Below are positions 25,194 through 25,945 of a stretch of DNA of 64,000 nucleotides, piece by piece (position 1 is the first letter of the stretch; the number at the start of each line of letters is the position of its first letter). Below the pieces are notes generated by a model that saw only the letters and a list, made by a program, of their open reading frames with translations, made no database searches and was not told the DNA's origin. The position numbers and the translations under genes are program-made. The DNA lies in assembly GCF_055900595.2 (NCBI RefSeq), contig NZ_CM148325.1; one strand, 5' to 3'.

Positions 25194-25945
25194 ATGGCCG
25201 TACTGGGATTGCAGGGGGTGCGGGGAGGCGTGGGAACAACAACCATCACTGCCGCATTAGCCTGGTCATTACAAATGTTGGGAGAAGATGTCCTGGTGGT
25301 CGATGCCTGCCCGGACAACTTGTTGCGCCTGTCATTTAACGTTGATTTTACCCACCGTCAGGGCTGGGCCAGAGCCATGCTGGACGGTCAGGACTGGCGT
25401 GACGCCGGGTTGCGCTATACCTCGCAACTCGATTTGCTGCCTTTTGGTCAGTTATCCATTGAAGAACAAGAAAATCCACAGCACTGGCAAACCCGGCTGA
25501 GCGATATTTGCTCCGGCTTACAGCAACTAAAAGCCAGCGGGCGTTACCAGTGGATTTTAATCGACTTACCGCGTGATGCCTCGCAGATAACCCACCAGCT
25601 GCTGAGTTTGTGCGATCACTCGCTGGCAATCGTCAATGTGGATGCCAACTGCCATATCCGGCTGCATCAGCAGGCGCTGCCGGATGGCGCGCATATTTTG
25701 ATTAATGACTTCCGTATCGGCAGTCAGTTCAGGACGATATTTACCAGCTTTGGTTGCAAAGCCAGCGCCGATTACTGCCAATGCTCATTCATCGTGATGA
25801 AGCGATGGCTCAATGCCTGGCGGCTAAGCAACCAGTCGGTGAATACCGCAGTGATGCGCTGGCGGCTGAAGAGATACTGACGCTGGCTAACTGGTGCCTG
25901 TTGAACTATTCCGGGCTGAAAACGCCAGTCGGGAGTGCATCATGA
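25194..25945 (+). pseudogene. bcsQ: bcsQ (ParA/MinD-like ATPase for cellulose synthase) disrupted by a reading-frame change near codon 178
   Basis: N-terminal 178 codons in the frame of ATG 25194 (MAVLGLQGVRGGVGTTTITAAL...DFRIGSQ); the conserved C-terminus (...LPMLIHRDEAMAQCLAAKQPVGEYRSDALAAEEILTLANWCLLNYSGLKTPVGSAS) is in another frame (ORF-track 25754..25945) ending in the ATGA overlap with bcsA; the N-terminal frame continues as unrelated sequence to a stop at 25880. Confidence 0.8.

Follow-up and report, generated by a model that had tools for sequence, protein, structure and literature searches.

The window, by which we mean the whole 64,000-nucleotide stretch of DNA that was analyzed, carries a complete type II cellulose locus, wherein bcsGFE (minus strand, 21287–24722) lies beside bcsRQABZC (plus strand, 24994–35478). 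A check of the gene context recovered the order bcsR-bcsQ-bcsA-bcsB-bcsZ-bcsC with a divergent bcsEFG operon, and bcsQ spans positions 25194–25945, between bcsR and bcsA. The BcsQ protein is a SIMIBI/MinD-type ATPase of type II Bcs systems (PMC7840130). All other bcs genes (R, A, B, Z, C, E, F, and G) are intact in the window. The features of the locus are as follows.

21287–22966, minus strand: bcsG, intact, in the divergent bcsEFG operon
22963–23154, minus strand: bcsF, intact, in the divergent bcsEFG operon
23151–24722, minus strand: bcsE, intact, in the divergent bcsEFG operon
24994–25182, plus strand: bcsR, 62 aa, intact, the first gene of the bcsRQABZC operon (19801–19989 in the annotation of the relative, L001)
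25194–25727, plus strand: bcsQ codons 1–178 in the native frame, with a deviant Walker A motif (GVRGGVGTTT) and TTG as codon 6
25726–25728, plus strand: deletion site, the only gap relative to Z0117EC0005, E200086, AST85, E500002, and K-12
25727–25945, plus strand: orphaned C-terminal part of bcsQ (V179–S250), whose stop lies within the ATGA overlap with bcsA
25728–25880, plus strand: out-of-frame tail of 50 codons (FRTIFTSFGCKASADYCQCSFIVMKRWLNAWRLSNQSVNTAVMRWRLKRY) followed by TGA at 25878–25880, with no BcsQ model positions matched
25931–25944, plus strand: bcsA ribosome-binding region, with the Shine-Dalgarno sequence GGGAG at 25931–25935 and the ATG at 25942–25944
25942–28560, plus strand: bcsA, 872 aa, intact, of equal length in the relative and with 0 differences from it
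28571–30910, plus strand: bcsB, intact, with a derived missense change (I337M) at 29581
30917–32023, plus strand: bcsZ, intact
32005–35478, plus strand: bcsC, intact, with a derived missense change (A329S) at 32989

The bcsR stretch likewise shows 0 differences from the near-identical relative, and carriers of the bcsQ allele described below encode the 62-aa product with a PF10945 match. Outside the cellulose genes, an Ldr-family type I toxin gene is present in five tandem copies between yhjV and bcsG (19160–21200). Each copy encodes 35 aa, the period is ~483 bp, and the same array is found in ST485 relatives and in the clade I genome EC42405.

The ATG-initiated ORF at 25194–25880 on the plus strand encodes 228 aa and follows native BcsQ up to ...LINDFRIGSQ. 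The last native codon is that of Q178 (CAG, 25725–25727), after which the translation continues as FRTIFTSF.... When the sequence was aligned with the intact bcsQ of its closest relative and with K-12 MG1655, a single gap was observed that converts CAGGTT to CAGTT, corresponding to the loss of one G from the GG pair that spans codons 178 and 179. The surviving G at 25727 is shared by the two frames, wherein it closes codon 178 of the upstream one and opens the V179 codon of the downstream one. In the numbering of the intact gene, the allele is c.535del, p.Val179Phefs*51. The C-terminal frame is open from just past a TGA at 25706–25708 to the stop at 25943–25945, and it encodes V179–S250 (...VQDDIYQLWLQSQRRLLPMLIHRDEAMAQCLAAKQPVGEYRSDALAAEEILTLANWCLLNYSGLKTPVGSAS).

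These results agree with the original prediction, which had been made from the letters of the window and had placed a change of reading frame near codon 178 of bcsQ, attributing it to the loss of one G from a GG pair. Both frames and all of the positions it gave proved exact. The alignment with an intact bcsQ that it had proposed as a check contains the gap and yields no continuous frame, and the truncation that it had expected is evident from the frame translation and from the NCBIfam model positions, with native residues 179–250 missing from the product. It had also held that this is not the K-12 allele. Three-way alignment bore this out, wherein codon 6 is TTG in the window and in the closest relative and is TAG only in K-12 MG1655.

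Matches to protein family models describe the same break. The 228-aa product matches the NCBIfam model NF007460 (E = 5e-114) over model positions 1–180 of 250, TIGR03371 over model positions 1–180 (212.5 bits, cut-off 157.85), and the Pfam family PF06564 (CBP_BcsQ; E = 5e-81) over positions 1–178 of 234. The ORF at 25754–25942, which represents the orphaned part, corresponds to BcsQ model positions 188–250 of 250 (NCBIfam). With NF007460, the product scores 379.9 bits, which is below the equivalog cut-off of 399, whereas the protein from an intact relative scores 539 bits over positions 1–250. Because the frame breaks after codon 178 and the score falls under the equivalog cut-off, the window gene is, as judged from its sequence, a bcsQ pseudogene rather than an intact member of the BcsQ family.

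The source of the window was placed by tiers of nucleotide identity over positions 36000–60000, which identify it as Escherichia cryptic clade I and not E. coli sensu stricto. The top tier comprises about eight complete genomes that are at least 99.9% identical over 24 kb. A middle tier of about ten genomes (98.3–98.8%) includes EC42405 and 2013C-4282, both of which are listed as cryptic clade I (PMC10100065). The remaining complete genomes are at most 96.7% identical, such that only about 18 of 5,426 reach at least 98.3% over 24 kb. Among the closest genomes are the GEMS isolates 100117, E200086, E400634, E500002, and E600003, all with intact bcsQ. These isolates were obtained from children and are reported as Cryptic I (100117 as 'Cryptic'), ST485, OND:H45, and eatA-positive (PMC13064198). 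Because the closest genomes are typed as Cryptic I and ST485, the window strain is an ST485-like member of cryptic clade I.

Comparison of the whole 64 kb with Z0117EC0005, the closest complete genome, revealed 16 substitutions and one indel, which is the bcsQ deletion itself. Poor assembly quality overall was thereby ruled out as an explanation, and because the bcsQ deletion is the sole indel in 64 kb, the assembly is not indel-prone. A total of 94 contigs in the NCBI, ENA, and Logan collections encode the exact 228-aa product (125 blocks indexed). We examined carriers from six NCBI assemblies (GCA_964249055.1, GCA_902827765.1, GCA_965260545.1, GCA_052587505.1, GCA_029846055.1, and GCA_050170535.1) and from two Logan assemblies of SRA runs (DRR298295 and ERR10124996), and the deletion is present in all eight samples. 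Seven of these were fetched with 10-kb flanks, and every one of the seven carries the derived SNPs 29581G and 34587C, together with 19518G where that position is covered. The carriers also differ from one another: two of the seven keep the ancestral G at 32989, one shows a T/C difference at 20565, and two have in-frame repeat expansions in bcsC. In four ST485 genomes and in EC42405, the clade I outgroup, bcsQ retains its G and the linked SNP positions show the ancestral bases. Because the carriers share derived SNPs yet differ among themselves, the deletion must predate their later diversification, and this sequence pattern makes it a derived trait common to a sub-lineage whose members have diverged since.

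The allele was sought in complete genomes with an 81-bp query across the site at a threshold of at least 99% identity, and it was present in 0 of the 5,263 complete RefSeq E. coli genomes that could be matched in this region. The two-frame arrangement is accordingly not conserved, given that one frame runs through the site in all relatives and in the 5,263 complete genomes. The intact clade-I-type BcsQ (WP_032185391.1) was found on 584 contigs versus 94 for the deleted form, which thus represents ~14% of contigs, a rough value in that contigs were not de-replicated by sample.

Several other differences were noted in the bcs genes of the carriers. The bcsB change I337M (29581) occurs in 7/7 carriers with wide flanks and the bcsC change A329S (32989) in 5/7, with the ancestral state at both positions in the four ST485 genomes and EC42405. 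These numbers are too small for a claim of relaxed selection. A GCGCAG repeat in bcsC (34040–34055), which encodes Ala-Gln, has two units in the window, three in GCA_050170535.1, and four in GCA_902827765.1, corresponding to BcsC lengths of 1157, 1159, and 1161 aa, respectively. In GCA_902827765.1, bcsA has GGGGG in place of GGGG at the equivalent of window position 27380, which splits the gene into ORFs of 507 and 372 aa. This extra G is either a further mutation in a locus that was already inactive or a miscount of the G run during assembly.

On these grounds, we consider it highly likely that a one-time loss of a G, inherited within a sub-lineage of cryptic clade I, turned bcsQ into a pseudogene, abolished BcsQ function, and with it cellulose secretion. 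In this scheme, one G of the GG pair at codons 178 and 179 would have been deleted once in the ST485-like sub-lineage and then inherited. The resulting product would retain residues 1–178, drop residues 179–250, and gain 50 unrelated residues. The BcsQ of the intact relative corresponds over residues 1–250 to the solved structures of E. coli BcsQ (6YBU, 6YAR, and 6YBB). The protein folds into one alpha-beta-alpha SIMIBI domain, whose seven strands form a sheet in the order b7-b6-b1-b5-b2-b4-b3. Disorder is limited to ~10 residues at the C terminus, and BcsR2Q2 complexes of the ATP-sandwich type are formed, with BcsRQ being essential for secretion (PMC7840130). Because disorder is confined to those ~10 residues, residues 179 to ~240 belong to the ordered fold, and the truncated BcsQ would for that reason be expected to misfold or to be unable to form BcsR2Q2. 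By analogy with the MinD-like topology, edge strand b7 and the final helices are probably among the elements lost. These elements were taken from the published description, as a single-sequence AlphaFold2 model of intact BcsQ reached a mean pLDDT of 44.

The expected consequences for cellulose have a firm basis in published work showing that BcsQ is required in E. coli 1094 (PMC5727187, PMC7840130). Deleting bcsQ makes cells cellulose-deficient, a defect that complementation reverses, and without BcsQ the expression of partner Bcs subunits and the assembly of the macrocomplex are severely compromised (PMC5727187). If expression and assembly of the Bcs macrocomplex fail in the same manner here, then no pEtN-cellulose would be secreted, despite the intact bcsR, A, B, Z, C, E, F, and G genes. 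Because BcsQ is required in the published system and the Q178* allele of ST95 truncates the protein at the same residue, the strain is most likely cellulose-negative. A second bcs cluster elsewhere in the genome, beyond the window, could mask the defect, given that horizontally acquired second clusters exist in some E. coli (10.1101/2025.05.09.653004).

It is conceivable that the G was dropped from the GG pair during sequencing or assembly and that the true gene is intact, which is the alternative that the original prediction had kept as a base-call error. Assembly errors classically take the form of one-base indels, and none of the complete RefSeq genomes carries the deletion. However, the same product is found on 94 contigs, which were deposited by various submitters or assembled anew from raw runs by Logan, the deletion is present in 8/8 carriers of which the seven with wide flanks share derived SNPs and differ mutually, a GG pair is not an error-prone homopolymer, and 64 kb contain no second indel. 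The contigs, the linked SNPs, and the diversity of the carriers effectively exclude a base-call error, and we give an artefact of this kind almost no credence. If the frameshift is real, BcsQ function might still be kept through slippage, through an active fragment of residues 1–178, or through N- and C-terminal pieces that reassemble. Walker A, N152, R156, and N171, which contribute to nucleotide binding, all lie upstream of the break (PMC7840130) and are retained, and some residual activity of the truncated protein is therefore possible. In addition, the C-terminal frame is still open and includes in-frame TTG and ATG codons, and the allele has been maintained and has reached 94 contigs. Against this, the 172-nt overlap of the two frames (25709–25880) offers no sequence feature that would support programmed frameshifting, transcriptional slippage, or restart: heptamers of the form X_XXY_YYZ are absent from every frame, homopolymers do not exceed 3 nt, and none of the candidate restart codons (TTG 25754, ATG 25781, and ATG 25805) is preceded by a Shine-Dalgarno sequence. 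Close relatives all encode one continuous ORF, such that the split is not conserved, and BcsQ is one compact domain of which the missing part is ordered. A single substitution, G14S, is already enough to cause cellulose deficiency (PMC5727187), and persistence is equally expected of a neutral or advantageous null (PMC10881479). Retained function is therefore, in our judgment, very improbable.

A further question is whether BcsQ is null but the main effect of the deletion is a decrease in BcsA through lost translational coupling or polarity, a mechanism also suspected in K-12. In the intact gene, the bcsQ stop overlaps the bcsA start as ATGA, and this overlap is now replaced by termination 61 nt upstream of the bcsA ATG. 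A predicted hairpin (25907–25937) pairs the bcsA Shine-Dalgarno sequence with UAUUCC at 25907–25912 and also involves the A of the ATG. Ribosomes that complete bcsQ would normally open this structure, and the pairing is a weak hint of an effect on bcsA. However, the hairpin is no more stable than those of shuffled sequence (z = −0.42), and bcsA has a good GGGAG located 6 nt from its ATG. An untranslated gap of 61 nt is short for typical Rho loading and Rho-dependent polarity. Because the stop is only 61 nt from the bcsA ATG and bcsA has its own GGGAG, polarity of the Rho type suspected for K-12 is unlikely, and a loss of translational coupling, although plausible from the sequence, is probably mild in its effect on bcsA. 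The authors of the K-12 work left the choice between BcsQ loss and polarity undecided (PMC5944007), whereas deletion of bcsQ alone abolishes cellulose and bcsQ supplied in trans complements the defect (PMC5727187). We therefore regard a main effect through BcsA as improbable. Under the preferred reading, in which the loss of BcsQ itself eliminates cellulose secretion, reduced translation of bcsA may occur as a secondary effect of ribosomes that terminate 61 nt before its start.

Cellulose is one of the main constituents of the biofilm matrix and moderates the inflammation that curli provoke. Experiments have linked its loss to higher virulence in ST95 (PMC10881479), and the O104:H4 outbreak strain is a further case in which cellulose loss was noted (PMC4287979). 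Cryptic clade I has lately been singled out as an emerging source of intestinal pathogens (PMC10100065). The bcsQ deletion is an event of the same kind within cryptic clade I, and the closest complete relatives of the carriers are the eatA-positive GEMS isolates. It is possible, although we hold this only as a tentative and rather doubtful proposal, that the deletion was the founding pathoadaptive event of an expanding, human-associated ST485 sub-clone of cryptic clade I. If this were true, then the convergence by which cellulose is lost and virulence or transmissibility is gained would not be confined to E. coli sensu stricto, truncation at residue 178 would have arisen twice independently (ST95 Q178* and c.535del), and the later bcsA and bcsC changes in some carriers would represent the onset of locus decay. 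Apart from any adaptive role, the deletion provides a one-base marker for the sub-clone (94 contigs versus 584 with the intact clade-I-type BcsQ). For annotation purposes, the bcsQ gene of carriers is a true pseudogene, and there is no error to correct.

Other short forms of BcsQ (P0002–P0015) share a 90% cluster with the 228-aa product. One of these, P0006 (181 aa), derives from a 4.73-Mb contig and ends in GDAANLLI*, which may represent read-through into the end of an IS1 element. Several 'partial' forms of 165–179 aa are probably cut off where their contigs end. We do not claim a mutational hot spot at codons 165–181, as clustering by length and coverage favours truncations of similar size and several of the forms are contig-end partials.

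A known comparator is the bcsQ allele of K-12, wherein codon 6 is changed from TTG to TAG, a lesion that abolishes cellulose production and that was repaired in strain AR3110 (PMC7397504, PMC5944007). Like the window allele, it is a single-nucleotide lesion of bcsQ with the other bcs genes intact. The two differ in that K-12 has a nonsense codon at position 6 and the window a 1-bp deletion after codon 178. Moreover, ~735 nt of bcsQ are left untranslated in K-12, which makes polarity on bcsA plausible, whereas only 61 nt are untranslated in the window. The K-12 allele belongs to a laboratory strain of phylogroup A, and the window allele to natural isolates of cryptic clade I.

Another comparator is found in clades 3 and 4 of ExPEC ST95, which carry BcsQ Q178*, classed as a loss of function (PMC10881479). 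This form (P0003) is 177 aa long, ends at S177, and was found on 125 contigs. Both alleles truncate BcsQ at the same residue (an end at S177 versus a native end at Q178), and both are inherited within a sub-lineage. However, Q178* results from a C-to-T nonsense change at codon 178, whereas the window has a G deletion at codons 178/179 and a tail of 50 residues, and the backgrounds are unrelated (B2 versus ST485-like cryptic clade I). The parts of PMC10881479 covered here report no phenotype specific to Q178* strains.

Such losses are numerous. [quoted passage not shown] 2024, PMC10881479), and bcs truncations affect 74 of 76 common E. coli STs and are also present in Shigella and Salmonella (PMC10881479). 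Repair of bcsA in an ST95 strain restores cellulose, and cellulose loss enhances virulence in animal models (PMC10881479). Individual examples include the bcsA fs186 allele, which is lineage-fixed in ST95 clade 8 (PMC10881479), and a frameshift caused by an added C in bcsE of the O104:H4 outbreak strain (PMC4287979). The original prediction had described the window allele as a second, independent route to the K-12 phenotype. An independent route it is, but rather than the second, it is one of many already described (PMC10881479).

Neither cryptic clade I nor ST485 appears in the text of PMC10881479 or in the part of its supplements covered here, and its Data 3, to the extent covered, lists only 'truncated.bcsQ' per ST, with the mutation not given. 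Literature searches on bcsQ frameshifts or pseudogenes and on cellulose in ST485 returned no description of the c.535del allele. As in the convergent bcs losses, one truncated bcs gene is fixed in a clonal sub-lineage, the mutation being truncating and inherited while close relatives remain intact. The deletion is thus a new allele, in a lineage not previously examined, of a known kind of event, namely convergent bcs loss, and it involves no new mechanism.
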